A DNA stretch of 64,000 bases from Candidatus Adlerbacteria bacterium (GCA_903851045.1 CAINNF010000007.1:11289-75288), one strand, 5' to 3'; shown: positions 29,493 to 52,477, counted from the first letter of the stretch. Numbers and translations are program-made. Notes: generated by a model from the letters alone, not told the origin.

Positions 29493-30515
29493 TTATAGTA
29501 ACCGCTCGTTCAAATCCTCCGGAGGTTTTTTGCCGAGGTGTTCGTAGGCTTTTTTGGTGGCGACGCGGCCGCGCTGAGTGCGCTCGATGAGGCCGAGTTG
29601 CAGGAGGAAGGGTTCGTGGACTTCGGAGAGTGTGTTTGGTTCTTCAGCGAGGGCGGCGCCTAGGGCTGAGACGCCGACGGGGCCGCCGTGGAAGCGGTCG
29701 ATGAGAGCGAGGAGGAGGGCACGGTCCAGTGGGGTGAGGCCGAGTTCGTCGACCTCCAGCAGGCCAAGTGCGCTTTCGACGATTCCTTTGGAGAGTGGGA
29801 CACGCTTGAGTTGGGCGAAGTCACGTGCTCGCTTGAGGAGATAGTTGGCGGTGCGTGGGGTGGAGCGGCTGCGCTTCGCTATCTCACGCACACCGGTCTC
29901 TTCGACCTCGACACCAAGAATAGCCGCCGAGCGGCGCACGATGTTGGTGATGTCGTCCTCGCTGTAGAACTCGAGTCGAAAGACACCGCCAGAGAAGCGC
30001 GAGCGCAGCGGCGCAGAGAGGTCGGCGATGCGCGTGGTCGCGGCGATGAGCGTGAAGGGCGGCAGCGGCAGCTCGATCGTGCGCGCGCTCGGTCCTTTGC
30101 CGATGATGATATTGAGAATGCCCGACTCCATAGCGGGGTAGAGGACCTCTTCGATGGTGCGCGAGAGCCGGTGTATCTCATCGATGAAGAGCACATCGCC
30201 TGGTTGGAGGTTGGTGAGCAGTGCCGCGAGGTCACCAACGCGCTCGATAGCGGGCCCGGAGGTCGAGCGCATCGTGCCACCAAGTTCGCGCGCGATAAGG
30301 TGTGCCAGCGTGGTCTTGCCGAGTCCTGGAGGGCCGTAAAAAAGGATATGTTCGGGCGGATGCTGACGCTCCTTGGCGGCAGTGATCAGGATATGGAGAT
30401 TGTTTTTGATACTTTCTTGGCCGATGTAGTCGTCCCACGACGAAGGGCGCAGCGTCTGGTCGAGAAACGTGTCATGTCCTGTGTCGGCCGCGCGCTCTGG
30501 CGAATTGCTTGACAT
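29493..30515 (-). CDS. ruvB: Holliday junction branch migration ATPase RuvB
   Basis: [46 protein letters not shown]; Walker [12 protein letters not shown]. Confidence 0.9.
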
Positions 30516-30893
30516 AAAAATATTCCTATGCTAGGCTCTATTTAGTCGCCCCACTTCTTTGTGTTTGAGGGGTTTTCTTTTTTGTCATAATTTCGAACGT
30601 GCATATCTCTAAGTAATAAGGCCTCTCATCGGGTTTTGGAGCCTACACGAGGACACTTCGGTTCATCGTCTTGTACGATGTACGGGGGTTATCCTAAGCG
30701 TTGGTATCCTGTTTTTGAAAAATTTCAAAAATTTTATTACTTAGAGGTATGCCTGCTCGAATACTTCGACTACGCTCAGTACAAGCGCCTCGATTGTGCT
30801 CGGTGCAAGTCTGTTCCGTACAAGCCTCATCAACTCTACTCAGTATATACGTACTACGCAACGTTGCGGCGCAACTTTTTTTGTTTTTGAGTG
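30516..30893. other. 378-bp non-coding gap between ruvB and pilB with plus-strand terminator-like hairpins (candidate sRNA locus)
   Basis: ccccacttctttgtgtttgaggggttttctttttt at about 30557-30595 and cgcaacgttgcggcgcaacttttttt at about 30860-30890; promoter-like ttgaaa...tactta in between. Confidence 0.3.
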
Positions 30894-32591
30894 CTAACGC
30901 ACCTCGAGATCGACGACGCGTGATAATTCGTCAAGTGACGTGAGGCCCCGCAGCACTTTGATGACACCATCTTCAAGCATCGAGGGTATGCCTTGTGGAC
31001 GTGTCGCGGTCGTGATCTCGCGTTCGGATGGTTTGTCGCGCAAGACCGCTTCGAGGATCGAGTCCATAAAGATTGCTTCGAAGACACCGATGCGGCCTTT
31101 GTATCCTCGATTGTGACACTCAGGGCAACCGTCGGGTTTCGCGTCCCACACCTTTAACCGATTCTCGGGCACGAGCGTACGGTCTACCACGCCAGCCATG
31201 ACCTGTTTGATCACCGCCATCTCTTTTTCGTTCTGGTCACGCTCGATCTTGCAGACCTTACACAAGGTACGCACCAACCGTTGCGCCATCGCGACCGTGA
31301 TAGCTGAACTCAGCACTTTTTCGTTGATACCCATGTCGATTAGGCGGGGGAAGGTCCCCGCGGCGTTGTTGGTGTGCAGCGTCGAGAACACCAAGTGGCC
31401 GGTCAGCGACGCGTTGATTGCGGTCTCTGCAACCTCGCCGTCGCGGATCTCGCCGACCATGATGACGTCTGGGTCGGCACGCAGTGCGGAGCGTAACCCT
31501 TGCGCGAACGAATAGTTCTTCTCGACCTGTGTCTGTACGATAGGGAGGTGATATTCGATCGGGTCCTCGATGGTAATGATCTTAGTGCCTGGTTCGTTCA
31601 CTTTACGCAAGAACGCGTACAGTGTCGTCGTCTTACCCGAACCGGTCGGACCGGTCGTGAGAATCATGCCGTTCGGGCGGGCGATCTCGTGATAGATACG
31701 ATCGAGTAGTTTTGGCTCCAGCCCGAGCGCTTCGAGGGACACGGAGATCGCTTTTGGATTGAGGATACGAAGCACCACAGTCTCGCCGTAGTTGCCCGGG
31801 AGCACCGAGGTGCGCATCTCGATCTCGTCGCCGCGGACTTTGATGCTAAAACGCCCGTCTTGCGCCTCGGTGGTGATGTTGAGCTTCATGCCCGACAGGA
31901 GCTTCATGCGGGAAAGCACCAACCGATACGTCTCGTGGTCGAGGGTCAGCACGTTGACGAGTACGCCGTCGAGCCGGTACCGCAACTGTACATTGAACTC
32001 CTCGGGTTCGAAGTGGATGTCGGAGGCGCTGAGCGAGAGTCCTCCGGCGAGAATAACCTCGACGATATGCGTCACGCGATACGCGCGTTTGGTGTCCGCG
32101 GCCGATTCTTGGATGAGCGCGCTGATGTCAGTGAGCGACTTAACCTTCGTGAGAAGCGCCTCGATCTCCTCGGGCGAGATCTCGAAGACGCCCGCCTTGC
32201 TTTCGGTCGCGAACGAAAGGTCCGCGTATCGCGCGTATCCGCGCGCGAGACTCTCTTGAGAGCACATGAACATGGTGGGAATGTACCCGAGATCTTGCAG
32301 GTGTTGTACCGTCGCCAAGGCTTTTGGGTTCGCGGGAGATCGTACCGCAAGACTGAGCTTTTTGCCTACCATCCCGAACGCAACCACCTCGGCGTCCCGC
32401 GCATCCTTTTCGGGCAGGAGACGCAAGGCATCGGAGTTTATCGCGACGAGCGACAGGTCGACGTACTCGACGCCATACTTGTGCGACAATACTTGCGCCA
32501 GTTCCTCCTCCTCGCGCTTTTTGAGGAACTCAAGACGCCGCTGCTGCTCTTCATCGCCAAAGACTACCATTGGCTTTATTGTACCTCGCAC
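30894..32591 (-). CDS. pilB: Type IV pilus assembly ATPase PilB (GspE family)
   Basis: Walker A LTTGPTGSGKTTTL, Asp box, His box, C-terminal tetracysteine (CKVCK...CPECHNRGYKGRIGVFE), 565 aa. Confidence 0.85.
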   Translation of the reverse strand: MRGTIKPMVVFGDEEQQRRLEFLKKREEEELAQVLSHKYGVEYVDLSLVAINSDALRLLPEKDARDAEVVAFGMVGKKLSLAVRSPANPKALATVQHLQDLGYIPTMFMCSQESLARGYARYADLSFATESKAGVFEISPEEIEALLTKVKSLTDISALIQESAADTKRAYRVTHIVEVILAGGLSLSASDIHFEPEEFNVQLRYRLDGVLVNVLTLDHETYRLVLSRMKLLSGMKLNITTEAQDGRFSIKVRGDEIEMRTSVLPGNYGETVVLRILNPKAISVSLEALGLEPKLLDRIYHEIARPNGMILTTGPTGSGKTTTLYAFLRKVNEPGTKIITIEDPIEYHLPIVQTQVEKNYSFAQGLRSALRADPDVIMVGEIRDGEVAETAINASLTGHLVFSTLHTNNAAGTFPRLIDMGINEKVLSSAITVAMAQRLVRTLCKVCKIERDQNEKEMAVIKQVMAGVVDRTLVPENRLKVWDAKPDGCPECHNRGYKGRIGVFEAIFMDSILEAVLRDKPSEREITTATRPQGIPSMLEDGVIKVLRGLTSLDELSRVVDLEVR

Positions 32592-32639: not shown

Positions 32640-33080
32640 ATGGAGAACGTGAAACTCGATGATCTGGGAGTGGTGGCCCAAAAAACGCTTTCTCGCGTAC
32701 CCCAAGAAGGCTTGCGTGCAGCGCTCATAACGCTCCACGGTGACCTTGGTGCGGGTAAGACCACGTTTGTACAGGTGTTGGGGAAGGAACTTGGTGTGGA
32801 AACGACGATCCAGAGCCCAACATATGTATTGATGAGATCATATCCGATCAACTTTGGACGTTTTACAAAACTCGTGCACATAGACGCGTACCGACTCACG
32901 GTCCCCGAAGAGTTCGCAACACTTAAGCCCGAAGAGTTCTTCAGCGACCCACAGGCACTGGTGGTTTTGGAGTGGCCAGAGCGAGTGGGCGACCTGCTCC
33001 CTCCGCCGGACCTTCGACTCAACTTCTCGTCCGAGGGTGCCAGTGCCGATGAGCGGTTCATCGAAATCATCCAAAAGTAA
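32640..33080 (+). CDS. tsaE: tRNA threonylcarbamoyladenosine biosynthesis protein TsaE
   Basis: LHGDLGAGKTTFVQVLGKELGV...SPTYVLMRSY...HIDAYRL; 146 aa. Shares a reading frame with a long upstream ORF that is antisense to pilB. Confidence 0.8.
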   Translation: MENVKLDDLGVVAQKTLSRVPQEGLRAALITLHGDLGAGKTTFVQVLGKELGVETTIQSPTYVLMRSYPINFGRFTKLVHIDAYRLTVPEEFATLKPEEFFSDPQALVVLEWPERVGDLLPPPDLRLNFSSEGASADERFIEIIQK

Positions 33081-33110
33081 CTCCTTGGTCGCTCATGATA
33101 TAATCGTTGT

Positions 33111-33716
33111 GTGAAAATGCGGATACTGTTCGCTGCGCTCGTCATCTTGATTATCGGCATAGTATCTTGCTCTGCATGGTTCTACCTGCGTATACAAAAA
33201 GACAGCACAGGAACAAAGGTGTTCGCTCCAAACACAGAATCACTACCACAAACAAGAGATGGTTTGGCTGATGCTGCGACCACATCAGCAAGACAGTATA
33301 CAAACAGCGAGTTTGGATTCTCGTTGGTTTCGCCAATCGACTTGTCTTTTGAAAAACTCACGCCAACACAAGGGTTTAATGCTTCCAAACCGCACGCGAT
33401 TTTACATATACAGAATCAAATCAAGGCAGGTACAAGCACTTGGAATGGGTTGATATACATCAACTCGTCTTGGGAAGGGCCTATGGGGCCAGATGATTGG
33501 AGTTCCGCCACAAGCTCAATGCTTGTTAGTGGTGTTCCAGCAACGGTGCGAATAACAGGATCACAAATAGATGGAAAGATATACGAAGAGGAAAAACACG
33601 TCGATTTTGTACGAAATAGCAACTCTTATTTTATCCTTTTGTCGTATGATACCGTCGAAAACAGAGCAATAACGGACAGTATTCTGCAGAGGTTTGCGTT
33701 TGCGACAAGTCAGTAG
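33111..33716 (+). CDS. Hypothetical membrane-anchored protein
   Basis: MKMRILFAALVILIIGIVSCSAWFYL TM helix; 201 aa. Confidence 0.45.
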   Translation: MKMRILFAALVILIIGIVSCSAWFYLRIQKDSTGTKVFAPNTESLPQTRDGLADAATTSARQYTNSEFGFSLVSPIDLSFEKLTPTQGFNASKPHAILHIQNQIKAGTSTWNGLIYINSSWEGPMGPDDWSSATSSMLVSGVPATVRITGSQIDGKIYEEEKHVDFVRNSNSYFILLSYDTVENRAITDSILQRFAFATSQ

Positions 33717-33793
33717 TTTTTGACATCCTCTAGTGAATAGGGTCTTTTTTTGGCGACGTAGCTGTGGGAACAGGAATGATATAGAGTAAGGGT

Positions 33794-37888: not shown

Positions 37889-37961
37889 CCGCCCATAGCT
37901 CAGTCGGTAGAGCAGCTCCCTTTTAAGGAGACGGTCGTTGGTTCGAATCCAACTGGGCGGA
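37889..37961 (+). tRNA. tRNA-Lys (anticodon TTT)
   Basis: CCGCCCA-TA-GCTCAGTCGGTAGAGC-A-GCTCC-CTTTTAA-GGAGA-CGGTC-GTTGG-TTCGAAT-CCAAC-TGGGCGG-A cloverleaf. 7-bp acceptor stem pairs perfectly; anticodon loop CTTTTAA; no encoded CCA. Confidence 0.85.
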
Positions 37962-39524
37962 CAGAAATTGGTGTAATATAACCCCCTTATTTTGAGCGAT
38001 TTCTTGAGCTTTCTTGGTTTCTTGTGAGCGATAGAATGCTGCTTCGAGTTTCAAAAGTGCATCGAAAAGAGGGGCAGGAATGGCGCTTATTATAACTCCG
38101 TTGACGACTTCGAACCGCTCCCAGAAAAAGAGCAGGTACTGTCGTTGTAGTTCGGGTGATGCTTTTTTGTATGCAGCACAAATGTCTCGTGTGAGCAGGA
38201 GTATCTCGCGCGCAACCTCGACGTTTACCTCTCGTTGGTCTTCGAGTTGGAGCAATTCGTTGTTGATTTGGTCTATGTCTGTCTGCAATTCTTTGCGTAT
38301 GCGCGTGAAGTCCTCGTCGGAGAGTGTGCTCGAAAAGAGCTTTTCTTCTGCGATTTTGCGCTTTGACTCAAGTCCTGTGCGGCGATTAACGAACCCTTGC
38401 CGCTTCGCATCGTACTTTTTGCGTCGTTCTAGGAATATCTGTCGTGCGTTGTCTATGACCACGCCGACAAACTCGTCGGAGAAATCTATGTCTCTGAACT
38501 TATCGGCCACCGCATCCTCCAGTGCTGTGTGCTCAATGTATTTTCCGCACCCTTTCGGGTTGGTGCAGTGGTAGTACGCCTTCTTTTTGTTCATGTGCCA
38601 TTCGGCAGCGTAGCGACGACCGTGCCGAGGACAGGTTACAAGTCCCGCAAGTAGCCAGACGTATTTACGACGACGACAGGCGTGCTTGTTCTTTTCTTCG
38701 AGTATCATCTGTACGCGGTCAAACGTCTCTTGGTCGATTAACGGCTCATGTTTGCCTTTGAGTACGTCGATACCGCCCCAGTGAATCTCGCCGAGATAGA
38801 GGCGATTGCGCAGCAGATTGTATAGGCTGTTGAGTTGCAGTCGGCTACCTTGTCGGTTGCGTAATCCTTTGACGTGCATGATGTCGGACAGCTCCGCGAC
38901 GCTGATGTCGCCGCGTGCGTAGCGGTGGAATGTCTCGGTTACAAGCGGTCCCGACACTGGATCGGTGGCGATGATGTTTCTGCCTATTCGTCCTGCAAGC
39001 GGGTTCGGGTTCTTGGTGTTGTAGTATCCTGTGGGCGGATAGGTGGGGAAGTAGCCCTCTTTGGCGATTTCGCGCATCACGCCTTGTACTTTCTCCGCAG
39101 TTATCAGACGCTGCAGCTGCGAGAAGGTCATCATCATAGTGCCGACCGTGAGACCCATTGCGCTTTCGTTGTCTATCATTGGCTCGTTGATGCTGATGAG
39201 TACGGCTCCTTTCGATTTCAGGAGTTCTTGGAAGATGAGGTAGTCTTTGACGTTGCGCCCAATACGGTCGCTGTGTACGACGTAGACCGCTTGCACTTTC
39301 TTCTCGTGGATGAGCTGTATGAGTGTGCGTATCGCGGGGCGGTTCATGTCCTTGCCGCTCTTGCCCTCGTCTTTGAGTGCGGGCAGTAGGGTGTATCCGT
39401 CGCGGAGGATCCGCTCGTTGCAGATTCTTTCTTGTGCTTCGATAGACAAGCCCTCCTTGGCCTGCTCATCGGTTGATACCCTACAATAAGTTACGGCTGT
39501 TTTGTTTTGATTAATAGTTGGCAT
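37923..39524 (-). CDS. Large serine recombinase (phage-type serine integrase)
   Basis: N-terminal resolvase catalytic domain (AVTYCRVSTDEQ ... GLSIEAQE ... RIGRN), recombinase domain, and zinc-ribbon CxxH...C region (LAGLVTCPRHGRRYAAEW...YYHCTNPKGCGK). The last 13 codons are antisense to the tRNA-Lys anticodon-to-T-arm region. Confidence 0.85.
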   Translation of the reverse strand: MPTINQNKTAVTYCRVSTDEQAKEGLSIEAQERICNERILRDGYTLLPALKDEGKSGKDMNRPAIRTLIQLIHEKKVQAVYVVHSDRIGRNVKDYLIFQELLKSKGAVLISINEPMIDNESAMGLTVGTMMMTFSQLQRLITAEKVQGVMREIAKEGYFPTYPPTGYYNTKNPNPLAGRIGRNIIATDPVSGPLVTETFHRYARGDISVAELSDIMHVKGLRNRQGSRLQLNSLYNLLRNRLYLGEIHWGGIDVLKGKHEPLIDQETFDRVQMILEEKNKHACRRRKYVWLLAGLVTCPRHGRRYAAEWHMNKKKAYYHCTNPKGCGKYIEHTALEDAVADKFRDIDFSDEFVGVVIDNARQIFLERRKKYDAKRQGFVNRRTGLESKRKIAEEKLFSSTLSDEDFTRIRKELQTDIDQINNELLQLEDQREVNVEVAREILLLTRDICAAYKKASPELQRQYLLFFWERFEVVNGVIISAIPAPLFDALLKLEAAFYRSQETKKAQEIAQNKGVILHQFLSAQLDSNQRPSP

Positions 39525-39677
39525 GGTGTTGTGATGGTAAATACGCACCTTGGAAACACAAACCGGTTTTTCCACACTTACCAGTGAGAGTGGTTCTTTT
39601 TCCTTGAGGAGGGTATAGAATTAATTTTTTAATTTCATTTTAATAATTAATTATTGTCCTAACTTTCTTATGGTTGG

Positions 39678-40139
39678 TTACTGAAGATTTTTAGGTTTCG
39701 CTCTACTCCTTTTTTCTCCCCGCTCACGTTCTATCCTTCGCTGAATTGCGTCGAGTTTGCCCTGCGCCATTGGTGCGAGTCGCCACTGTATCGTGCCTAG
39801 CCGTTTATGCCGCCCGCCTTTTTCTAGAACATCTCTTACTCGTAGATGCTCAAGCGATTGGTTTACTGTCACATCGCTCACATTTAGTGATTTTGCGAGC
39901 GATTTTTGCCCTATGTAACACCACCCGGTTTGTCGAGAGAGCGAATATATCTCAGCCACCAATAGTGCCTCGGTAGGACTAAACCCGAACTGATCCGTGA
40001 GACCAAAGTACACGATTGCGTACATGCCCTCACGGTTGGTTCGGTCGGCGACAAACTCGTTCGCTGGCTCGCTTGCGTCAGAGTCTCCTTGTGGCGGAGT
40101 CGGAGGCGTGACAAAGTCCCCGAGTTTAGTCATTTCCAT
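39678..40139 (-). CDS. Winged-helix DNA-binding protein (replisome-organizer / RepA_N-like N-terminal domain), element-encoded
   Basis: GWCYIGQKSLAKSLNVSDVTVNQSLEHLRVRDVLEK resembles phage replisome-organiser HTH domains; basic C-terminus. Confidence 0.45.
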   Translation of the reverse strand: MEMTKLGDFVTPPTPPQGDSDASEPANEFVADRTNREGMYAIVYFGLTDQFGFSPTEALLVAEIYSLSRQTGWCYIGQKSLAKSLNVSDVTVNQSLEHLRVRDVLEKGGRHKRLGTIQWRLAPMAQGKLDAIQRRIERERGEKRSRAKPKNLQ

Positions 40140-40142
40140 GGT

Positions 40143-40325
40143 CTAGTAGGGGATAGTCTCAAACGTCACGTCGTCACCCTCTTGGTCGAGGTCGTCCGTG
40201 TCCTCGATATTTTTCCTTAGCTGGTGGGCATCGTATAGCGTCTGGATTAGATTGTCTTCGATTGCCCTAACTTTGGTGATGTTGCTGTGCTCTCGTGCAG
40301 TTTCGCCCTTGGTCTTAGTTGGCAT
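40143..40325 (-). CDS. Small hypothetical acidic protein (60 aa)
   Basis: ORF in operon orientation immediately downstream of the HTH gene. Confidence 0.3.
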   Translation of the reverse strand: MPTKTKGETAREHSNITKVRAIEDNLIQTLYDAHQLRKNIEDTDDLDQEGDDVTFETIPY

Positions 40326-40534
40326 AGTTGTTCTGCTGATTAGCGCCCCCTTTTAAATGCTTCGTCGATGGCGGCGACAAGGATATGTGCGAAGACGCGT
40401 GCAGCAGCGTCCCGCTGCGCGCTTATATCGACCTTTTCTCGCGTGTCCTTCCCACCTGTCATCGTGGTGGTAAGCGTAAAAGAAAAGACGTCGTCCAACA
40501 GCCGACATTTTCTTAACCACGAAATGTCCCTTGC

Positions 40535-41341
40535 TTATTTTTTGATATTTTTAATGTGTCTCTGTAGGGCTTTTTTGGTTGTGTCTGGATTTTTTGGCAC
40601 AGCATAGCCGAGTTTTTTAAGTCCACTATCTATGTCCAGAAAATCTTCGATCTCTATACCTCTTTGCGAGAGAAACTTTTTTGCATTTTGTTGATTAATA
40701 ATGCCCGATACCCTGAGAACGCCTAATTTACTTAGCTCAATAAGCTTTTCGTTTCGAACTGACTGTGTTCTGGTTTTTATCCTCGTCTGAAAACGGGTGC
40801 GCTGCCAATCTATGTCCTGTGTCTCTATTTCACTCCAATTTTCACTCTTAAGACTAGCTTCTTTCTCATACGCAACCTGCATTTGCAAGTTTTCTATTTC
40901 ACTCCAATTTTGCTTAAGAAATGATATTGTCCTATTCAGAGTTGCTTCAGGGTAGATGTACAAAATTGAAGCATCCGCCTTTTGATCTAGAGCACATCCC
41001 ACAGTTTTTTCAATTCCTGTAAATCTCCAATTATCGCTTGGCATATGCTGACCAAAAATTACATACGCTCGGACAATATCCTCTAGGTGATGTCCTAACT
41101 CATGTTTTCGCAAAATATCTGCAACCCCCGTTTCAACAACTTGTTCAGATCCTCCCGGTACATGATTCAGCCAGTTGAAGAAGTACTCGTTCTCGTCCTT
41201 TTTGAGTAGTTTTTCAACGTTTAGCCCGTCAGCGTCGATTTTTGCTCTTTTGCGTAATTCTGCGACGTCTGTAACAAAATCTCTCCGCTCTTTGATGTGG
41301 TTGAAGTGCTCCAATATTCCCTTGTCCGTTCGCCAACTCAT
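40535..41341 (-). CDS. Hypothetical protein (268 aa, AT-rich gene, internal ENWSEIE tandem mini-repeat)
   Basis: Long ORF in the low-GC element; no recognised motif. Confidence 0.45.
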   Translation of the reverse strand: MSWRTDKGILEHFNHIKERRDFVTDVAELRKRAKIDADGLNVEKLLKKDENEYFFNWLNHVPGGSEQVVETGVADILRKHELGHHLEDIVRAYVIFGQHMPSDNWRFTGIEKTVGCALDQKADASILYIYPEATLNRTISFLKQNWSEIENLQMQVAYEKEASLKSENWSEIETQDIDWQRTRFQTRIKTRTQSVRNEKLIELSKLGVLRVSGIINQQNAKKFLSQRGIEIEDFLDIDSGLKKLGYAVPKNPDTTKKALQRHIKNIKK

Positions 41342-41562
41342 AGTGTGATATTACCAGATTTTGGTGATATACTGGCCGCGTGCGCGAGAAACAGCGTACC
41401 AAAACTGAATATTCAAGCAAGTAGCCTAAACCATCCTACGGGGTGGCATGGCGAAAGCGAGAGAAGTCGTATAAGGCACAGAGAACCCTCACGGGTTGCC
41501 TTATACGCCGTACCGGGAAACTGGTACGAGGAGCCTCGGCTCCTACCGTGGGGGCTTTTTGT
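41342..41562 (+). ncRNA. GC-rich structured leader / candidate cis-regulatory RNA upstream of the HhH-motif gene
   Basis: Extended -10 (tggtgatatact) at about 41365, then nested perfect stems (cgtataaggca...tgccttatacg; ggagcctcggctcc) and a gggggcttttt terminator-like end immediately before the ATG at 41563. Overlapping ORFs are short and on mixed strands. Confidence 0.3.
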
Positions 41563-42159
41563 ATGAATATCCAAAGCTATATAAAATACCACTTGCTCGA
41601 AACCGAGTATCTCGAAAAAGAGGTGCACTCATTTTTCCACAAAAACCATCACCTTACGCCCGAGCATTTTCTTGCAATCATCATCTGGAAGTCGAATCGC
41701 TCAAAAAAATACGTCATCAAGGGACTAAAAGAGATGCAAGAAATAGGAAGAACTGTAAAGACGATAACCGAAGAAGTGTACGATGCTGGAGAAAATCAAA
41801 ACAAAGACAGACAGGTTGAAATATTAACAGACATCTACGGCATCGGTATTCCCATAGCATCAGCGATTCTCACTATTTTGTATCCCGACAGGTTTACCAT
41901 CTATGATATTTATTTACACGAACAACTCAATGGAAATGAGTTCAAAAAATATTGCAATAACGCACCATTTTCAAAAATTATCGGTACAGACAAGAAGGAT
42001 AGGGAAAAGTATTTTAAGTTTGTCGACATTGTAAAAGAGATTGCCGAAAAAGAGACAGGGAACGATCTTCGCAAGTGCGACCGGGCTTTGTGGGGTAAGT
42101 CTTGGTACAACGGTCTTAAGCAAAGTGTGGAGAAGTCAGGTTTGGTATTTCGTGAGTAG
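41563..42159 (+). CDS. Hypothetical protein with helix-hairpin-helix-like motif
   Basis: DIYGIGIPIASAILTILYPDRFTIYD resembles HhH DNA-binding motifs; 198 aa; AT-rich. Confidence 0.4.
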   Translation: MNIQSYIKYHLLETEYLEKEVHSFFHKNHHLTPEHFLAIIIWKSNRSKKYVIKGLKEMQEIGRTVKTITEEVYDAGENQNKDRQVEILTDIYGIGIPIASAILTILYPDRFTIYDIYLHEQLNGNEFKKYCNNAPFSKIIGTDKKDREKYFKFVDIVKEIAEKETGNDLRKCDRALWGKSWYNGLKQSVEKSGLVFRE

Positions 42160-42194
42160 TAATTATTATTCGCAACGTAACAGTAAAAAACAAT

Positions 42195-43295
42195 ATGAAA
42201 AACAGCTTTTCAAAAATAGTTCCAGTCGCCGCCTTTCTTCTTCTCGTCGTTCCGCAGATAGCTTTTGCCGCGTGGTGGAATCCTATATCTTGGAGTGTGT
42301 GGGGTGCAATTGAGAGTATTTTCGTGGGAAGTCCGCAACCTGTTACCGTAGCAACAAGCACACCAGACAACACTGCAATACCTACTCTTACAAACGCAGG
42401 GAGCAACAAAGACACGCAGATACTACCCACTCGAACAACAAAGAGTGCAGGTACTTCAATTCGAGCAACGCAACCGAAGCAAACGGCTATATCTGCAACA
42501 ACACAGACATCAGTAATTCCTACCCAACCGCAAGCACCTGTTGTCTCTAGCCAGCAGCTACAGACCGCTATTGCCAACTATCAGGCGCAAACAGCTCTCA
42601 ACTACCTGCAAACAATGATTCCACAGTTGCTAGTCATTGCTGGATCCGAACAGTCCGAGTTTAACGACCTTAGCCAATCAAAAAATCAATCGAGACAAAA
42701 TTGTCAGCAGATGGCGCAACAGGCAGCAACAGCAATTACAAACACTTATCAGCAAAGTACACAGAACAATACGGGTATAAACTTATCGGGGTTTGGATTC
42801 ATCCAAAATCAAACACAAACATTGCAGCAAGAAATGCAACAGCAAGAGCAAGCTGCACTCGCAAGCAATCAATCACAAGAAAATCTCTGCCTGTCTCAAT
42901 TCCCAGAAGGATCCGATGACTCCGTATTGCAGCAACTCACACAGGTTGTGAATCAACTCAATACACTATCGCAACAGGTGCAAAACAATCCAACCTCTGT
43001 GTCAGATATTGCCTCTCTCGTGCAGCAGTACAATTCTCTAGAGTCGCAAGTGATACATCTCAATGGTGAGCTTCCCACTCCAGTGTTGCCCATTTCTTTC
43101 CCAACGCAAGCATCCGCGCCAACCGTAGGCAATGTCAATTGTAGCTTGTCTGGCAGTAGTTTTACGTGCATAGGACCGAATACAAATACAGACTGCGCAA
43201 TCAGCGGATCCTCCGTAAATTGCATAGGAGCGAGAGCTGGTCAAAATATGTCCTGCACAGGTGTTGGCGGCTCTCTCAATTGTGTCTCCTATTAG
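42195..43295 (+). CDS. Secreted Q/T-rich protein with Cys-rich C-terminus
   Basis: Signal peptide MKNSFSKIVPVAAFLLLVVPQIAFA; C-terminal CSLSGSSFTCIGPNTNTDCAISGSSVNCIGARAGQNMSCTGVGGSLNC. Confidence 0.5.
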   Translation: MKNSFSKIVPVAAFLLLVVPQIAFAAWWNPISWSVWGAIESIFVGSPQPVTVATSTPDNTAIPTLTNAGSNKDTQILPTRTTKSAGTSIRATQPKQTAISATTQTSVIPTQPQAPVVSSQQLQTAIANYQAQTALNYLQTMIPQLLVIAGSEQSEFNDLSQSKNQSRQNCQQMAQQAATAITNTYQQSTQNNTGINLSGFGFIQNQTQTLQQEMQQQEQAALASNQSQENLCLSQFPEGSDDSVLQQLTQVVNQLNTLSQQVQNNPTSVSDIASLVQQYNSLESQVIHLNGELPTPVLPISFPTQASAPTVGNVNCSLSGSSFTCIGPNTNTDCAISGSSVNCIGARAGQNMSCTGVGGSLNCVSY

Positions 43296-43318
43296 TTGTG
43301 TACTGTTGGTAACTCATA

Positions 43319-43825
43319 ATGCACAAGAAACTTATCACCGAGCGAATCGCACGACTGGGTAAACTCCTGTATAGGGTAGTGTGCATTTGTTTGATGCTTT
43401 TTGGTGCGTGTGGCGTGATAGGACTTTTGCTCGACCTTGTCCCACCCGCTCCACCCTCTCCAGAACAGCAGGAACAGCAAAAGATAGCAGCCGCTGCCGA
43501 AGCATCGAGTACGACCATACTAGAAGCAACAAACAGAAAGGTGCGCATGGCTGCTAGCGAACTTCTCACCCTCCGTTGCCCGGGAGACTACGAAGACGTA
43601 AACGAAAGAGCAAAAGCATTATTTGCTTTCACCAACGACTTCTACGCCGAGAATCCGCAAGCAAGTGGTGACGATTATGCCACCGCGCGCATAGACTTCT
43701 ACATTACGCATCGGTGCTACGATAGTTTGCAGGACTATGGTTATGGGCTAGATGGTCCAATTACTCCGCAGATACGCCAGCAGCTTATTGAAACAATGCG
43801 GGCAGACGTAGAGAGTGGCAACTAG
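43319..43825 (+). CDS. Hypothetical membrane-anchored protein
   Basis: LLYRVVCICLMLFGACGVIGLLL TM helix; 168 aa. Confidence 0.4.
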   Translation: MHKKLITERIARLGKLLYRVVCICLMLFGACGVIGLLLDLVPPAPPSPEQQEQQKIAAAAEASSTTILEATNRKVRMAASELLTLRCPGDYEDVNERAKALFAFTNDFYAENPQASGDDYATARIDFYITHRCYDSLQDYGYGLDGPITPQIRQQLIETMRADVESGN

Positions 43826-43990
43826 TGCATTCCGCTAGTTGCTCTTTGCACACAGGCGTTTAGGCGGCAAGAACGCGGCATTACGCGCTGTGGAGCGGTA
43901 CGAGGAACAGTGATAATGTTACTGTAGCAGATAACTTAAAAAGATGTTTTGCAGATTCATTTACTTTGTTATTAACAATAGTTTTCTGAT

Positions 43991-44686
43991 ATGAAAGATA
44001 AAGACAAAATAATTGCAAAACAAGCAGGAACCACTGCTATTCTGGCAGCCGCGACTGCGGTTGATAGTACACAGTTTGCAGGGTATCCGCTTTTAAACAC
44101 AGCCGTATCACTTTTCCTTAGTCTGTACGGTGCGGCAGCGGAATTGCGCTCTAATCGAGCGATTGAATTTATCCAGTTTATACAAGAAAATCCAGGTGCG
44201 TTTGTTGCTGATTTTGTTAAAACGAGCGAGTTCCAAGATTCTTTTGTATATACGCTTGAAAAGTATATTCGTGAACGTAATAATAAAAAAAGAGACACGA
44301 TCAAAAAAATATTTTTAGGATACGCGGATTCAAACGATAAGGAGAGTTTCGAGCTTGAGAGAATGATTAACACTCTATCGCTGATGAGTTTTGATGGTAT
44401 ACGATTGTTGATTACTCTAAAACCATTACTCGAAAAAGCGAATAAGAATCAGTCTCTTTCAGAATATTTATTGGAGTACTTAGTCCAAGATTCGAATAAC
44501 CATCCCGACAAGTATAAACTGCCTGCAAATACAAATATTCGGGAGATTTGGGCAGATGCTGAGACTGATTTAATTAGTATTGGTTTGTTGCGTACATATA
44601 ATATTCCTCGCTACGACGGTTCGCGTTATCACGACTATGATGTTACAAGATTTGGTGAGGAGTTTATGAAATACATAGCAAACTAA
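43991..44686 (+). CDS. Hypothetical protein (231 aa, AT-rich)
   Basis: ORF within the low-GC element; no recognised motif. Confidence 0.4.
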   Translation: MKDKDKIIAKQAGTTAILAAATAVDSTQFAGYPLLNTAVSLFLSLYGAAAELRSNRAIEFIQFIQENPGAFVADFVKTSEFQDSFVYTLEKYIRERNNKKRDTIKKIFLGYADSNDKESFELERMINTLSLMSFDGIRLLITLKPLLEKANKNQSLSEYLLEYLVQDSNNHPDKYKLPANTNIREIWADAETDLISIGLLRTYNIPRYDGSRYHDYDVTRFGEEFMKYIAN

Positions 44687-44843
44687 TACTCCAGAATTAA
44701 AAGCAATTTTTATACTGTCTTGGACTGCTCCGCTCGCACGAGCATGCCAATAAAACCCACCTGTTGAGCTAGTTTTTGCATGTATGTCCTGTCCGACAAA
44801 AGGTTTATAATTATGTTATATTCGGGGGACCAAAGATGATAGA

Positions 44844-45317
44844 TTAGCGACCTTTGTGTGTGAGTGCGAACAGGGCGATGCCTGCGGTGACGGAGACGTT
44901 GAGCGACTCTTTTTTTCCATGCATGGGGATCTCGAGGATTACGTCGCATTTTTTGAGGAGTGGTTGAGAGATACCCCTGACTTCGTTGCCGAGCAGTACT
45001 GCGAGTGGCTGGTCGGTTGGTGGATGCCACTCGAACAAGGGGGTAGAGTGCTCGTCCTGCTCTATCGCTACCAGTAGGTACTTTTCTTTCCGTACTCTTG
45101 TGAGAGTCGCTCCGAGCGTTTTTACATATCTCCACGGCATCGTCTTCTCTGCGCCGAGCGCCACCTTGGCGAGATCTTTTCGTGGCTGGTTGAACCTGTC
45201 CAGAGGTGTCGGCGTGTAACCAGAGAGGATGATCTCGGACACGCCAGCAGCGTCAGCTGTGCGGAATATTGAGCCAACGTTATGCACGCTCCGGATATTG
45301 TGGAGGATGAGCAGCAT
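44844..45317 (-). CDS. SpoU/TrmH-family RNA 2'-O-methyltransferase (TrmL-like)
   Basis: MLLILHNIRSVHNVGSIFRTADAAGVSEIIL ... LLGNEVRGIS ... SLNVSVTAGIALF SPOUT motifs; 157 aa. Confidence 0.8.
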   Translation of the reverse strand: MLLILHNIRSVHNVGSIFRTADAAGVSEIILSGYTPTPLDRFNQPRKDLAKVALGAEKTMPWRYVKTLGATLTRVRKEKYLLVAIEQDEHSTPLFEWHPPTDQPLAVLLGNEVRGISQPLLKKCDVILEIPMHGKKESLNVSVTAGIALFALTHKGR

Positions 45318-48283: not shown

Positions 48284-48332
48284 AACAAACCCCTCGAAAG
48301 AGGGGTTTGTTGTGAGCGGCGCATTTTTTTAT
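48284..48332 (+). terminator. Rho-independent terminator after rpsT
   Basis: aacaaacccctc-gaaag-aggggtttgtt hairpin followed by a T-run. Confidence 0.65.
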
Positions 48333-48350
48333 TTGATATATACTTTCAGC

Positions 48351-51158
48351 ATGCAGACAGGTATAGAGGCGGGGAGGGCGACCGAGAGTGCGCGACAGGA
48401 GTTGGAGAATCTTCGTCGACGGGCCGCTCAGCTGGAGGCCTCGCTTGCACAGGGGGCTGCTCCCACTGCCCCTACGAGTCCTGCCGCCCACGTTGAGCGG
48501 TCTCAGGAGGCCGCAACACGCGCGGTCGGGGAGCAGTGGCAACAGGCGGTCCAAAAGCCATCACCCGCCGAAGCTCCACGTGTCGCGTCGCACCCAGACG
48601 CCATCACCCTACAACTGACTCCGGAGGAACATGACGAGCGTATGGGTGAGTTCATCTATGTACTCCAAGAGAGTGGTGTGGTGAAGGCGATAGAGGCAGC
48701 CGAGGCGACTGGCAACCCGCACCTCATCGACGACTTCCACCGGGTACTCGTTGAGTGGGTGCGCGAAGGTCTGCCCGCAAAAGGTGCCGACCGGGAACCC
48801 TACAAGGTGCCGCTCTCGCTGGTGCTCTATGAGGTGACGCTGCCGCAAGCGGGGTCCGATAAGGAAAAGTCGTCCGACCCGACCCGAGAGCTGCGCGAAT
48901 TCATATCGCTTATGGAGCAGTTCTACCGCGGGATGCTCCAAATGGACGCCAAACATGGCGAGTACTTCTCGTTCGAGATAGCCAACCCGGCTGGTGCCGC
49001 GCACACGAGCGTCTACATGGCGATACCACGCACCCGCAAGGCGATGTTCGAGAAGCAGCTCATGTCCCTCTACCCATCGGCTCGTCTCAAAGAGCTGCAC
49101 GATGACTACAATGCGTTCGCGAGCGGTTCGCAGGTGGTCGCCGCGAGCGCGAACCAGGTCGAGCAACACATCTACTCGTTGCGGACGTTCGACGTGTTCC
49201 CGAACGACCCGCTCGACTCGCTATTGAACGCATTTTCAAAATTGGACGAGACTGGCGAAGGTGCGGCCATACAGTTCGTCGTCTCACCCTACGACAAAGG
49301 GCTTTCGAAGCGGTATCGTACCGCGCTGCAAAGCATACATGCCGGTATCGAACTTCGGCAGGCGACCAAGTTGCCGATGGGTATGAAGCGCGTGTTCCAC
49401 GATATATACACCGTCTTCAACGTGCCCAAGAAAGAGGATGAGGATAAACGACTGCGACCGGATGACCCACGCATCAAGAACATCGAGAACAAGCTGGCGA
49501 GTCCGATACTGCTCGTCGACATTCGGACGGTCGCCTCGGCCGCGACCGCATCGAGAGCAAGGGAGATACTCGAGGACGTCAAAGCATCGTTCCAGCAGTT
49601 CACGGATACCGCGGGCAACCGACTGCTGTTCAAGGAGGTGCCGAGCCGAAAGATCGGTTCGTTCGCACACACATTCTCGTATCGTATGCTGAACGAACGC
49701 AGCGCCATGCCGCTCTCGGCGATGGAGCTCGCGACTCTCGCACACCTGCCGCGACCCGAGGCACGGGAGTTCGCGCCGGATATCCGTCAAGACAAGAGCC
49801 AGGCGGCCGCAGCCCCGATCGGGCTTCCGAAACAAGGTGTGCTCCTAGGTGTCAATCGTTTTCGCAACAACGAAACGAAGGTGTTCATCCAACCCGAGGA
49901 TCGTATGCGACACTTGTACCTTATCGGACAGACCGGTACCGGTAAGTCGGTGTTGCTCAAAAATATCGTCATTCAAGATATCAAGAGTGGGGCAGGGGTG
50001 TGCTTCCTCGACCCGCACGGCTCGGACGTGCTCGATATCCTCTCCGCCATCCCGCCGGAGCGTATGGACGATGTCATCTACCTTGACCCGGGTTCTATGG
50101 ATCGGCCGATGGGGCTCAATATGCTCGAGTATGACCCTGCGCATCCGGAGCAAAAGACGCTCGTGGTGGACGAACTCTTCGGCATCTTCAAAAAACTCTT
50201 CGGTGCGGTGCCAGAGAGTATGGGGCCTGCGTTCGAACAATACTTCCGTAACTCGGCACTTTTGGTCATGGAGGACCCCGCATCAGGGAACACTTTGTTG
50301 GATATCTCGCGCATATTCGCCGACGAAGACTTCCGCCAACGCAAGCTCGCGGCGTGTAAGAATCCGATCGTCAAGCAGTTTTGGGAGGGTATCGCCATGA
50401 AGACGACCGGCGAGCAGGGGCTCGAGAACTATGGCCCGTACGTCACCAACAAGTTCGACGTCTTCACGACGAACGACTTCGTGCGCCCGATGATCTCTCA
50501 GCAAAAGTCCGCGTTCAACTTTCGCGACCTTATGGACAACCGCAAGATCCTGCTCGTGAACCTGGCCAAAGGGCGTATCGGCGACATCAATGCCAACCTG
50601 CTCGGTCTCATCATCGTTGGGAAGTTCCTCATCGCCGCGCTGTCGCGGGTCGACTCCTTCGGTCAAGAGTTAGCACCGTTCTATCTCCACATCGATGAGT
50701 TCCAAAACTTCGCTACACCATCCATCTCGACCATCCTTTCGGAGGCTCGCAAATATAAATTGTCGCTCACTATCGCGCACCAATTCATCGCCCAGCTAAC
50801 GGATGAGATCAAAGACGCGGTGTTCGGTAACGTCGGTTCGATGTGCGCATTCCGTGTCGGCGTGGACGACAGTGAATTCTTGGAGAAGCAGTTCGCTCCC
50901 GTGTTCTCCGCTGCCGACCTGATGCGCGTCGACAACTACAATGCGCACCTCAAGTTGCTCATCAGCGGCAAGCCGTCGCAACCGTTCAATATCGAGACGC
51001 TACCGTTCCACGGCGGTACCAAAGAGTATGTGCAGCAGCTCCAAGCCCTCTCGGCACTGCGCTACGGCCGCCCGCGAGCCGAAGTCGAAGCCGAAATGGC
51101 CGCCGCCTTCGCCGGTGTCGTCCAAGACCCGGCCACTTTGATGACGGGGGGAATGTAA
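48351..51158 (+). CDS. VirD4/TraG/TraD-family (TrwB-type) P-loop ATPase with about 430-aa N-terminal domain of unknown function and no obvious TM anchor; putative coupling-protein-like ATPase
   Basis: Walker A YLIGQTGTGKSVLL; FLDPHGSDVLDILSAIP (the DPKGD-like motif); ILLVNLAKGRIGD; Walker B-like FYLHIDEFQNFAT; TIAHQFIAQL. Confidence 0.55.
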   Translation: MQTGIEAGRATESARQELENLRRRAAQLEASLAQGAAPTAPTSPAAHVERSQEAATRAVGEQWQQAVQKPSPAEAPRVASHPDAITLQLTPEEHDERMGEFIYVLQESGVVKAIEAAEATGNPHLIDDFHRVLVEWVREGLPAKGADREPYKVPLSLVLYEVTLPQAGSDKEKSSDPTRELREFISLMEQFYRGMLQMDAKHGEYFSFEIANPAGAAHTSVYMAIPRTRKAMFEKQLMSLYPSARLKELHDDYNAFASGSQVVAASANQVEQHIYSLRTFDVFPNDPLDSLLNAFSKLDETGEGAAIQFVVSPYDKGLSKRYRTALQSIHAGIELRQATKLPMGMKRVFHDIYTVFNVPKKEDEDKRLRPDDPRIKNIENKLASPILLVDIRTVASAATASRAREILEDVKASFQQFTDTAGNRLLFKEVPSRKIGSFAHTFSYRMLNERSAMPLSAMELATLAHLPRPEAREFAPDIRQDKSQAAAAPIGLPKQGVLLGVNRFRNNETKVFIQPEDRMRHLYLIGQTGTGKSVLLKNIVIQDIKSGAGVCFLDPHGSDVLDILSAIPPERMDDVIYLDPGSMDRPMGLNMLEYDPAHPEQKTLVVDELFGIFKKLFGAVPESMGPAFEQYFRNSALLVMEDPASGNTLLDISRIFADEDFRQRKLAACKNPIVKQFWEGIAMKTTGEQGLENYGPYVTNKFDVFTTNDFVRPMISQQKSAFNFRDLMDNRKILLVNLAKGRIGDINANLLGLIIVGKFLIAALSRVDSFGQELAPFYLHIDEFQNFATPSISTILSEARKYKLSLTIAHQFIAQLTDEIKDAVFGNVGSMCAFRVGVDDSEFLEKQFAPVFSAADLMRVDNYNAHLKLLISGKPSQPFNIETLPFHGGTKEYVQQLQALSALRYGRPRAEVEAEMAAAFAGVVQDPATLMTGGM

Positions 51159-51327
51159 AACATATAAGCGCTGTGTAAAGAAAAAGGGAGCCCGGAGGCT
51201 CCCTTAAGGAAAAACGATCTTATATCACGCGACGAAATATGGCGGAGCATATGCATTGTAGTACAATAGGAGTGTACGAAGTCTGTTTTTTACGTACATT
51301 TACTACCCATTAATTTCTACAAATTAT

Positions 51328-52044
51328 ATGAGTCTGAATCAGAGGGGGAACCTTCGTGTTGTGGGAGGGACAGAGGCGGGTCTGGATAAGCCGGAGCAAC
51401 CCGAGACAGCTCGAGAGAAAGCTTGGAAGACGGGGGCAGAGCGGCGAGAAAAGATAAAGAACTTCTTTGCTTCGGCAACAGAGAAGGTCACTCAAGGTCT
51501 CGACAAAGGAGTGACCTACGCGCTCGGTTCTCCCGAGGCGGTAGCACACGCAGGAGGAAAGGCGTGGGATGGTATGACCGCAGCAACCGGAAGGTTTTTG
51601 AACAAGGTGGATGCGGCGGCTATTCGTCTGGACGATACGGCGACCCGGGCTATCGGTACCGCAAAAGACAAGACCGTTGGGTTGGCCAAGCGCGCTGCCG
51701 CGTGGGGGTTGAACACCTTCATTGCACCTATCGAGAACAAGATTACGGACATCTGTAACATTCCTGCTGGGGTGCGAGAATGGCGCGCAGAACGTGCGGC
51801 AGCCAAGGCTAGCGCGATCGAAGCTGCTGGTGCGAGCGATGCGGCGGCGATCGAAAGACAGATCGAGGACCTAAGGACTCATCTCGAAGAGGTTAAACGA
51901 AAAGCGGAAGAAGCTAAGGCGGAAGCGCTCGCTAGGTCCTCAGGGTTGCGCGCGAGAGCAGTTGACTCTCGCGCTAAGAACAAAAATCGCAGACTAGTCC
52001 CACAGGCATTAGGTTGGTTGCGACCAACACAAGCTGCAGCATAA
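51328..52044 (+). CDS. Hypothetical alanine-rich protein with basic C-terminus
   Basis: 238-aa ORF, A/K/E-rich helical low complexity. Confidence 0.4.
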   Translation: MSLNQRGNLRVVGGTEAGLDKPEQPETAREKAWKTGAERREKIKNFFASATEKVTQGLDKGVTYALGSPEAVAHAGGKAWDGMTAATGRFLNKVDAAAIRLDDTATRAIGTAKDKTVGLAKRAAAWGLNTFIAPIENKITDICNIPAGVREWRAERAAAKASAIEAAGASDAAAIERQIEDLRTHLEEVKRKAEEAKAEALARSSGLRARAVDSRAKNKNRRLVPQALGWLRPTQAAA

Positions 52045-52064
52045 TTATCGTATAACTATCATAT

Positions 52065-52391
52065 ATGACAGTAGAACAAGTACGAGGGGTGTTGCGTGAC
52101 GGTGGGTTCTCTCCAGAGATACATGCGGCGATGAGTACGATACTTGATGCGGCGGCGGTACGTGGGAGTCTGACCGAGGAAGACAAGACAAAGCTGCTCG
52201 ACCTGATCGACATGGATGTTACCGCCACGGACATCGAGGCAGAGACGATGGAAGACATGGCGGTCGCGCTCGACGAATTCGCCAAAGAGGCTGATGAGGC
52301 GGTCCGGGCTGCGGATGCCGAGTACGAGAAGATCGAGGCCGAGTTGCTCGCCGAGTTGCAGGCGCTCACGCCGGAGGCTGTGGCCGCGTAA
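52065..52391 (+). CDS. Small acidic hypothetical protein (108 aa)
   Basis: ORF with E/D-rich helical sequence; ends 15 bp before tRNA-Arg. Confidence 0.35.
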   Translation: MTVEQVRGVLRDGGFSPEIHAAMSTILDAAAVRGSLTEEDKTKLLDLIDMDVTATDIEAETMEDMAVALDEFAKEADEAVRAADAEYEKIEAELLAELQALTPEAVAA

Positions 52392-52405
52392 GATCGTTTT
52401 TTTTG

Positions 52406-52477
52406 TGCCCCCGGCAGGAATCGAACCCGCATCGCCTCCTTCGGAGGGAGGCATCCTATCCATTGAACGACGGGGGC
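52406..52477 (-). tRNA. tRNA-Arg (anticodon CCG)
   Basis: Minus strand GCCCCCG-TC-GTTC-AATGGATA-GGAT-G-CCTCC-CTCCGAA-GGAGG-CGAT-GCGGG-TTCGATT-CCTGC-CGGGGGC-A; 72 nt. Confidence 0.8.

Follow-up and report, generated by a model that had tools for sequence, protein, structure and literature searches.

An integrative element of Candidatus Adlerbacteria at the 3′ end of tRNA-Lys and the probable division of its serine integrase gene upon integration

Introduction

How can the gene of a serine integrase run into a tRNA gene on the opposite strand and leave that tRNA intact, and to whom, host or element, does the overlapping sequence belong? The question is raised by a stretch of 64,000 nucleotides from a Candidatus Adlerbacteria bacterium (GCA_903851045.1, CAINNF010000007.1:11289-75288; Paceibacterota, candidate phyla radiation, CPR), which as a whole will be referred to as the window. 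Here an AT-rich region lies between the gene of tRNA-Lys(UUU) and that of a spoU-family methyltransferase, and the open reading frame (ORF) of a large serine recombinase (LSR), the integrase, terminates inside the tRNA gene. A preliminary description, made from the sequence alone, had taken the region for an element inserted within the 3′ half of the tRNA and supplying replacement sequence for it. Judged by comparison with related loci, the region is indeed an integrative element placed by the LSR, its position being the extreme 3′ end of tRNA-Lys(UUU). The evidence for this position, for a recombination site within the integrase gene itself and for what the resulting exchange of the protein's C-terminus may mean is presented below.

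The insertion and its integrase

The tRNA-Lys(UUU) gene is intact (37889-37962, plus strand; found by ARAGORN and, at 70.3 bits, by the Rfam tRNA model) and has kept its syntenic position in over 20 related genomes, the gene order polA-p251-(p226)-tRNA-Lys-spoU-doxX-mur-ruvA being present in more than 15 relatives. The host was assigned to Adlerbacteria by the neighbouring PolA, for which the best identity in a scan of one genome per species was 71%. In the relatives L012, L017, L018 and L048, the tRNA-Lys adjoins spoU; the distance to the spoU stop codon is 11-29 nt in L017 and L012, versus 6.9 kb in the window, so that the region is an insertion and not an ancestral gene block. The comparison with genomes lacking the insertion, proposed earlier as a check, has thus yielded empty tRNA-Lys-spoU sites. 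The insertion covers 6,868 bp (37963-44830), its right limit falling within 10 bp of the 44840 given approximately before. The drop in GC content noted at that time is also borne out—45.6% in the element versus 54.1% and 56.2% in the flanks—with the integrase gene (51.2%) near the background and the cargo at 44.0%.

The integrase is encoded on the minus strand by an ORF (37923-39575) of 550 amino acids from a GTG codon (39575) or 533 from an ATG codon (39524), one fewer than the 534 previously counted. Its stop codon TAA is the reverse complement of TTA at 37923-37925 in the anticodon loop CTTTTAA, and, in agreement with the earlier count, its last 13 codons (SAQLDSNQRPSP, then stop) are antisense to the tRNA, in which they extend from the 3′ strand of the acceptor over the T arm into the anticodon stem. 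The protein matches Resolvase (PF00239; 7.7e-28, residues 11-158), Recombinase (PF07508; 9.8e-11, 42.3 bits) and Zn_ribbon_recom (PF13408; 4.2e-07, 30.7 bits), the scores of all three exceeding the Pfam cut-off, as well as the PHROG integrase family phrog_95 (5.2e-83) and, partially, the CcrB and XisF models of NCBIfam. The triad R15-V16-S17 is invariant across 41 homologues, and the domains are those of serine recombinases only, with no assignment to the tyrosine recombinases. The AlphaFold2 (AF2) model of the homologue P0004 exhibits a canonical LSR body (mean pLDDT 84.6) with a zinc ribbon at residues 302-346 and long helices at 348-444. By its domain content the integrase is a complete member of the LSR family; among 50,697 phage and 72,556 plasmid records, there is no integrase more than 30% identical to it.

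Among the element proteins, the PHROG comparison detected the integrase, a weak replication-initiator-like helix-turn-helix (HTH) protein and one family of no assigned function, and no capsid, terminase, portal, tail or lysis gene. Of the two natures suggested before, a small integrative element therefore fits the 6.9 kb better than a prophage remnant does.

Junctions and the division of the integrase gene

The two junctions of the element, attL and attR, share in register only the tetranucleotide GGAC (37959-37962 and 44827-44830), which corresponds to the last two acceptor-stem bases followed by A73 and C74 of the tRNA. In the sense of the integrase, attL reads ...GGTTATATTACACCAATTTCT-GTCC-GCCCAGTTGGATTCGAACC... 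and attR reads ...CTATCATCTTTG-GTCC-CCCGAATATAACATAATTATAAACC..., the 4-bp core being all that the ends have in common, in line with the earlier remark that serine integrases leave no long direct repeats. The attP reconstructed from these ends combines the 4-bp shared core with an inverted repeat, GTTATATT-N20-AATATAAC, and the reconstructed attB—tRNA-Lys, 13 nt and the spoU stop codon—resembles the empty sites of the relatives. The empty site would accordingly be expected to read ...GGGCGGAC/CAAAGATGATAGATTAG (attB ...GGTTCGAATCCAACTGGGCGGAC/CAAAGATGATAGATTAGCGACC...) and the junction of the circle ...GTTATATTCGGGGGAC/AGAAATTGGTGTAATATAAC (attP ...GGTTTATAATTATGTTATATTCGGGGGAC/AGAAATTGGTGTAATATAACCCCC...).

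Two other placements were considered and rejected: a right junction at ccGACAAAAGG near 44794, the junction being at 44827-44830, and a crossover at TT 3-4 nt into the element, where the related element L184 has no identity and short of which the contig L186 ends, at GGAC. The heptamer cggacag, earlier thought to be shared between the tRNA-proximal junction and 44800, occurs at the latter place solely on the opposite strand (ctgtccg, 44789-44795) and does not mark a junction.

Since the junctions share only GGAC, the T arm and the anticodon arm through which the ORF reads are host DNA. It should be weighed here whether the crossover could instead lie within the tRNA, between the anticodon and the T arm, with the element bringing a replacement 3′ half as classical islands do. 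This would account for an ORF overlapping 40 nt of the tRNA and for the identical tRNA, including the T stem GTTGG/CCAAC absent from other relatives, that the window shares with the locus L015 of another Adlerbacteria species. A search with a T-arm/acceptor pattern allowing up to 3 mismatches, however, found no displaced tRNA 3′ fragment anywhere in the window, and attR consists of integrase-tail coding sequence up to GGAC followed by host spacer and spoU. Moreover, joined and integrated homologues diverge within 4-7 nt of the tRNA 3′ end, L184 has the same arrangement at a tRNA-Leu, and the contig L186 ends at GGAC, all of which makes a crossover inside the tRNA extremely improbable and removes the ground for the replacement sequence postulated earlier. 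As far as the sequences tell, the element adds nothing to the mature tRNA, which is left intact.

At its distal end, just ahead of spoU, the element carries a detached integrase 3′ end (44710-44829) of 39 codons, SPEYNIIINLLSDRTYMQKLAQQVGFIGMLVRAEQSKTV, and a stop codon; this fragment is 56% identical to the C-terminal tail (...SPEYNAIITILSDRNYMQQMASQLRFIRMMEKAEALENVQ) of the homologue P0004, whose gene is found in joined form in the contig L090. When attP is re-formed in the reconstruction, this tail is in frame with the integrase body, and the result is an uninterrupted ORF of 560 amino acids with a single stop, collinear with P0004/L090 (559 amino acids, 69% identical, same inverted repeat and core), the contig L090 having the joined arrangement GTTATATTAAGTAATGTTCAGTCCCCCGAGTATAAC. 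An attP inside the integrase's own coding sequence is thus seen in the reconstructed ORF, in the joined L090 and in the split L184. By this comparison, integration exchanges the last 41 residues (after approximately residue 520) for 14 tRNA-antisense residues; the overlap with the tRNA arises because the ORF crosses attP and then runs into host sequence.

The tail has the appearance of a protein-coding sequence. In three comparisons among the window, L090 and L184, its substitutions are distributed over codon positions 1, 2 and 3 as 40/24/53, i.e. in a coding-type pattern, and the tails of joined-form homologues 35-69% identical share the motif h-I-x-L-x-D/N-R-x-Y-M...L..I, which reaches 15-30 residues past any plausible att half-site. 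In the AF2 model of P0004, a disordered linker (500-533, overlapping the start of the helix as defined by DSSP) leads to a long C-terminal helix (521-558), so that the tail is probably a tethered amphipathic helix. Based on the above results, there are good grounds to believe that attP lies within the integrase ORF, that the crossover takes place in GGAC at the 3′ terminus of the tRNA and that integration swaps the C-terminal tail.

The integrase family

The same architecture was encountered at other tRNA genes. L184 represents a minimal element of 2.4 kb between host genes, with an integrase 57% identical to that of the window; the 3′ end of its gene enters a tRNA-Leu(GAG). The homologous tail fragment, CPEYQVLINVFSDRPYMESMARQLHFIRLMEKEE, is oriented alike and located at the other end of L184, and AGTGC is common to both junctions. 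In a subfamily 33% identical to the window integrase, the joined L097 and the integrated L096/L099 (82-89% nucleotide identity) agree up to and including TGGGGTG, which is antisense to the 3′ end of tRNA-His, and diverge directly after it, within 7 nt of that end. In the joined forms L095 and L108, this point is clearly surrounded by inverted repeats. The motif GTTATAWTA, encoding V-I-I/L, recurs in 13 integrated family members, whose targets are tRNA-Lys, Leu, His and Asn, and its distance from the tRNA 3′ end is constant at about 11 nt.

T-loop-antisense peptides (DSN or ESN) form the C-terminus of 50 out of 116 full-length homologues; about as many stop a few codons earlier, by inference in the acceptor antisense, and approximately 10 carry joined-form tails of about 40 amino acids. 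The split architecture is, on this comparative evidence, a property of a large CPR integrase family targeting tRNA-Lys, His, Asn and Leu and not an accident of one locus. Concerning the IMG/VR database, a scan with the single protein found no relative of the integrase, and a profile scan found one family member (L171, at tRNA-His) together with distant LSRs. A metagenome scan returned mostly distant recombinases, only L091-L108 being usable.

It may be mentioned that at 9594-9842 (minus strand) of L091 a related integrase, 49% identical, runs on into a tRNA gene split by a group I intron (RF00028, 55.5 bits); this tRNA escaped ARAGORN, yet the T-loop-antisense nature of the integrase tail is clear. 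The joined-form relatives L095 (755-6271 and 12093-14813) and L097 (929-5018 and 11629-15745) are situated amid genes for type III restriction-modification, RhuM, an OLD/AbiEii-like ATPase and helicases.

Mobility of the element

In the other Adlerbacteria species represented by L015 (PolA 62% identical), an integrase gene 97% identical at the nucleotide level to that of the window is found at that species' own tRNA-Lys, which indicates recent movement between species; the contig ends at the integrase locus and its upstream flank is unrelated. The two genes differ in 40 codons, 34 synonymously and 6 non-synonymously, and the gene is thus maintained by selection.

In the assembly ERZ18630316, the locus is present in two pieces. 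One of them, scaffold_66 (L186), ends exactly with ...GGGCGGAC (...CCAACTGGGCGGAC), at GGAC, and the other, scaffold_11, has its start within the tRNA, 55 nt before that point, and runs on into the element, so that they overlap by 55 nt. Such an overlap is what a k=55 assembly graph gives when sequences diverge right after GGAC. A different continuation after GGAC—most simply the empty attB—carried by other cells or molecules is therefore likely to coexist with the occupied site, the evidence being circumstantial.

These observations bear on whether the element is a fossil, i.e. a decayed, immobile remnant of a prophage or island, the overlap between ORF and tRNA being an accidental read-through after loss of the original stop codon. 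In accordance with such decay, the searches recognised no gene for a capsid, a terminase or a relaxase and none for replication, and the element is present in all of the 18 contigs with an identical spoU that reach far enough, one assembly (L002/L185) covering the complete element and both flanks. On the other hand, the 34 synonymous and 6 non-synonymous differences point to strong purifying selection on the integrase, a near-identical gene resides at the tRNA-Lys of another species, the detached tail is intact and in frame, the read-through is family-wide and conserved in frame, and the assembly branches at the crossover. A fossil is consequently a very unlikely explanation.

Cargo genes and LOOT RNA

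The features of the element are summarised in Table 1. In the sense of the integrase the gene order is p268-p60-HTH153-int; it is preceded by a divergent region with the LOOT RNA, from which p198, p366, p168 and p231 are directed rightward.

Table 1 Features of the element and of its immediate flanks
Feature	Position	Strand	Remarks
Host tRNA-Lys(UUU)	37889..37962	+	ARAGORN, Rfam; B arm of attB formed by its 3′ part
Large serine recombinase, integrated isoform, 533 aa (alternative GTG start 39575)	37923..39524	-	Pfam, PHROG, NCBIfam; last 14 residues from host tRNA antisense
attL core GGAC	37959..37962		sole in-register identity with attR; probable place of crossover
P′ arm motif AATATAAC (codes for conserved V-I-L/I; on the integrase strand GTTATATT)	37975..37982		inside integrase 3′ coding region, 12 nt from core
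HTH153, 153-aa HTH protein	39678..40139	-	directly upstream of integrase; HTH_36 1.4e-4, below cut-off; weak PHROG replication-initiator matches
p60, 60-aa ORF	40143..40325	-	gene call in public assemblies; no family matches
p268, 268-aa ORF	40535..41341	-	first gene of integrase-ward operon; no Pfam, PADLOC, NCBIfam or PDB match
LOOT RNA (RF03000)	41423..41544	+	65.7 bits versus gathering 46.4, model positions 1-121 of 121; divergent intergenic region, heads rightward genes
p198, 198-aa protein, HhH-GPD-glycosylase-like predicted fold	41563..42159	+	phrog_24538; AF2 pLDDT 90.4
p366, 366-aa Q-rich protein, signal-peptide-like N-terminus, Cys-rich C-terminus	42195..43295	+	translation; no family matches
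p168, 168-aa protein, hydrophobic N-terminal segment	43319..43825	+	gene call; no family matches
p231, 231-aa protein, lowest-GC part of element	43991..44686	+	gene call; no family matches
Detached integrase 3′ end, 39 codons and stop (SPEYNIIINLLSDRTYMQKLAQQVGFIGMLVRAEQSKTV)	44710..44829	-	in frame with integrase body once attP re-formed
P arm motif GTTATATT	44815..44822		inverted partner of 37975-37982; also flanks junction in joined form L090
attR core GGAC	44827..44830		host resumes at 44831, 13 nt before spoU stop codon
Host spoU-family methyltransferase (flank, outside element)	44844..45317	-	Pfam 9.4e-34

HTH153 is the only cargo protein conserved beside the integrase, its homologues being found upstream of the integrase in L183, L091 and L092; HTH_36 is matched by the upstream gene in L183 and by a gene on the opposite strand in L095. 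Its resemblance to a replisome organiser, proposed earlier, is weak, both the HTH_36 and the PHROG replication-initiator matches remaining below threshold. For p268 and p60, no homology was detectable to the genes in the same positions of L183 (a 60-aa ORF in the case of p60). The search of the cargo against phage families that had been suggested gave phrog_24538 for p198 and the weak matches of HTH153, and no phage structural genes in PHROG. Apart from HTH153 and p198, the cargo proteins have no match in Pfam (E up to 1), PADLOC, NCBIfam or a PDB sequence search.

The structured leader mentioned in the preliminary description proved to be a LOOT RNA. Further copies of it, scoring 76-92 bits, are located near four related integrases (L091 5507-5628, L092 1371-1493, L183 2220-2335 and L103 2862-2985), 1.8-2.5 kb upstream of them; they are on the opposite strand in L091, L092 and L183, as in the window, and on the integrase strand in L103. 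The gene downstream of LOOT varies, being either the glycosylase-like p198 or NOV_C. In the window, LOOT is flanked by a promoter-like site (41345-41373) and a terminator-like hairpin (41538-41556).

The protein described before as having a helix-hairpin-helix (HhH) motif, p198, is predicted to adopt an HhH-GPD-glycosylase-like fold: its all-helical model has a GIGIPIASAIL hairpin and an invariant D115, and its top Foldseek matches in the PDB are nearly all Ogg (including Ogg2), MutY, AlkA and EndoIII, all of them weak (best E=0.013, probability 0.99, TM 0.43). It belongs to no Pfam family, and its homologues occur in the related elements L092 and L108 and in diverse bacteria. Only HTH153, the integrase, LOOT and—in L092 and L108—p198 recur in the relatives, the remaining cargo being variable. 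As relatives carry restriction-modification and other defence-like genes, the elements of this family may serve CPR bacteria as carriers of defence genes.

Outside the element, the window contains three genes at 48312-52400, coding for a 948-aa DUF8128/VirD4-TraG-like protein and for proteins of 238 and 108 amino acids, between ribosomal protein S20 and a tRNA-Arg(CCG) (52405-52477, minus strand). In related Adlerbacteria, S20 adjoins the tRNA-Arg and these genes are not there, and the segment, of host-like GC content and with no integrase seen in it, possibly represents another insertion at the 3′ end of a tRNA gene. Short dips in GC content are present upstream of polA at 30250-31000 and 33000-33750 (0.43-0.50 versus about 0.56).

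Possible meaning of the tail exchange

In the free form, with attP intact, the gene would encode a protein of 560 amino acids with a C-terminal helical tail on a disordered linker. The P′ arm (GTTATATT, coding for V-I-L) and the crossover core would both lie inside the 3′ coding region, the ORF running 39 codons further on the P side. Recombination with attB within GGAC would leave the tRNA intact, move these 39 codons to the far end beside spoU and fuse the integrase body to host DNA, so that the protein ends with 14 tRNA-antisense residues and its gene stops in the anticodon loop, as in the window. Upon excision, the full-length gene would be restored.

Whether this exchange has a function can be answered only tentatively. 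It is conceivable, with a probability below one half, that it produces a state-dependent isoform of the integrase and in this way acts as a regulatory switch, possibly a device for commitment or directionality in which the full-length enzyme would serve integration and the truncated one would be inert, less stable or prone to excision. In its widest form, the proposal would hold that CPR serine integrases split themselves as a state switch: the C-terminal helix of the free-circle enzyme would be needed for, or favour, the reaction attP x attB, the integrated isoform would be inert or excision-prone, directionality or commitment would be embodied in the topology of the gene and not in a separate factor, and LOOT would be the element's own regulatory RNA. 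In this full form the proposal is rather doubtful.

The main rival of the regulatory switch is neutral compaction, according to which attP overlaps the integrase 3′ end as a compact integrase-att module, the tail being dispensable and its swap without regulatory effect; this too should be regarded as a possibility somewhat short of even. Such neutrality is suggested by the tails of integrated homologues, which measure 0 to about 30 amino acids and have no common sequence beyond that dictated by the tRNA, by at least two unrelated tail types among the joined forms, by the low AF2 confidence of the tail helix, placed after a disordered linker of about 30 amino acids, and by the description of archaeal att-within-gene modules as compact and exchangeable (PMC8371274). 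It is harder to reconcile with a tail whose reading frame is uninterrupted over 39-46 codons of AT-rich DNA in each of the three close relatives, with its coding-type substitution pattern and with a motif kept down to 35% integrase identity, 15-30 residues past the att half-site.

Several points weigh against the crossover at GGAC and the functional exchange proposed here. Studied serine integrases cut at the exact centre of the att site. The inverted repeat of attP is centred 2-4 nt toward the integrase side of GGAC, and L090 and L184 have the same offset. The contig break at GGAC could in principle have another cause. A search with a junction-spanning 74-aa peptide and with the exact attP DNA in IMG/VR recovered neither the joined (attP) nor the empty (attB) sequence of the window element, so that its free form is inferred from homologues. 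No candidate for a recombination directionality factor was found among the element genes; no replication or transfer function was identified, the element proteins containing no relaxase, conjugation/transfer or clear replication gene recognisable in Pfam, PHROG, PADLOC or NCBIfam. The tail helix, at pLDDT 53-66, has no packing partner in the model. Not every tail found in distant subfamilies can be aligned, one type being 'DxxRT', and tRNA-derived tails of 0 to about 30 amino acids appear to be tolerated; both facts fit a neutral overlap as well as a switch.

Comparison with known systems

With the phage-type LSRs (phiC31, Bxb1, A118, phi105 and the CcrB/XisF class), the window integrase has in common the resolvase domain with R-V-S17, the recombinase domain and the zinc ribbon with a long coiled-coil insertion, as well as, to judge by the reconstruction, short att sites with inverted-repeat half-sites and without long direct repeats. 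It differs from them in targeting a tRNA 3′ terminus, in having attP within its own ORF and in a crossover that is apparently off-centre. Serine integrases are the workhorses of large-cargo genome engineering, and the control of their directionality is an active research question. An attP in the integrase's own ORF offers a natural experiment on the extreme C-terminus, since the end of the enzyme would depend on whether the element is free or integrated, and the family provides integrase-att modules of compact build whose targets, the 3′ ends of tRNAs, are highly conserved.

Classical tRNA islands, as collected by Islander and TIGER, resemble the element in their insertion at the 3′ side of a tRNA gene that remains functional, in the integrase adjoining the tRNA and in a variable cargo, which in the relatives includes defence genes. 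The window element differs by having a serine integrase and no duplicated tRNA fragment, merely 4-7 nt being shared in the family. The duplicated fragment is the signature used by island-finding tools, and according to a 2014 statement of the Islander authors, tRNA genes were not known as targets of serine integrases (PMC4383910); later reports are possible. In the literature covered, which was partial, no serine integrase was found to be described that targets tRNA genes or has its attP within its gene, and a prior description is possible. As serine integrases of this kind target tRNA genes without leaving a duplicated fragment, such elements are probably missed systematically by island-finding software. 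The present one adds a concrete, bounded mobile element to the poorly understood mobilome of ultra-small bacteria and gives the orphan LOOT RNA a genomic home.

A further likeness is to the archaeal 'suicidal' integrases of the SSV type (SSV1, pTN3, pT26-2), which carry the recombination site in their own gene and target tRNA genes; they are tyrosine recombinases, said to be confined to archaea, and are split in essential regions (PMC8371274). The window integrase shares with them the attP in its own gene, the partition of that gene by integration and the tRNA target. It is, in contrast, a bacterial serine recombinase in which only the last 41 residues would be exchanged, the catalytic and DNA-binding domains remaining in one piece; 'self-splitting' integrases would thereby be extended beyond archaea and beyond tyrosine recombinases. 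In the integration-dependent immunity of mycobacteriophage BPs and its relatives, where the integrase is a tyrosine recombinase, it is the repressor gene that is split, and the tail removed is an ssrA-like degradation tag (PMC4557955). Common to BPs and the window element is that the state of integration is read out as a protein isoform via the C-terminus, whereas in the latter the integrase itself is split and the tails—ending in ...SKTV, ...ENVQ, KTV, NVQ, CLG or LSK—are not consistently ssrA-like. If the regulatory switch is real, the element would represent the bacterial serine-recombinase counterpart of both the archaeal suicidal integrases and integration-dependent immunity.

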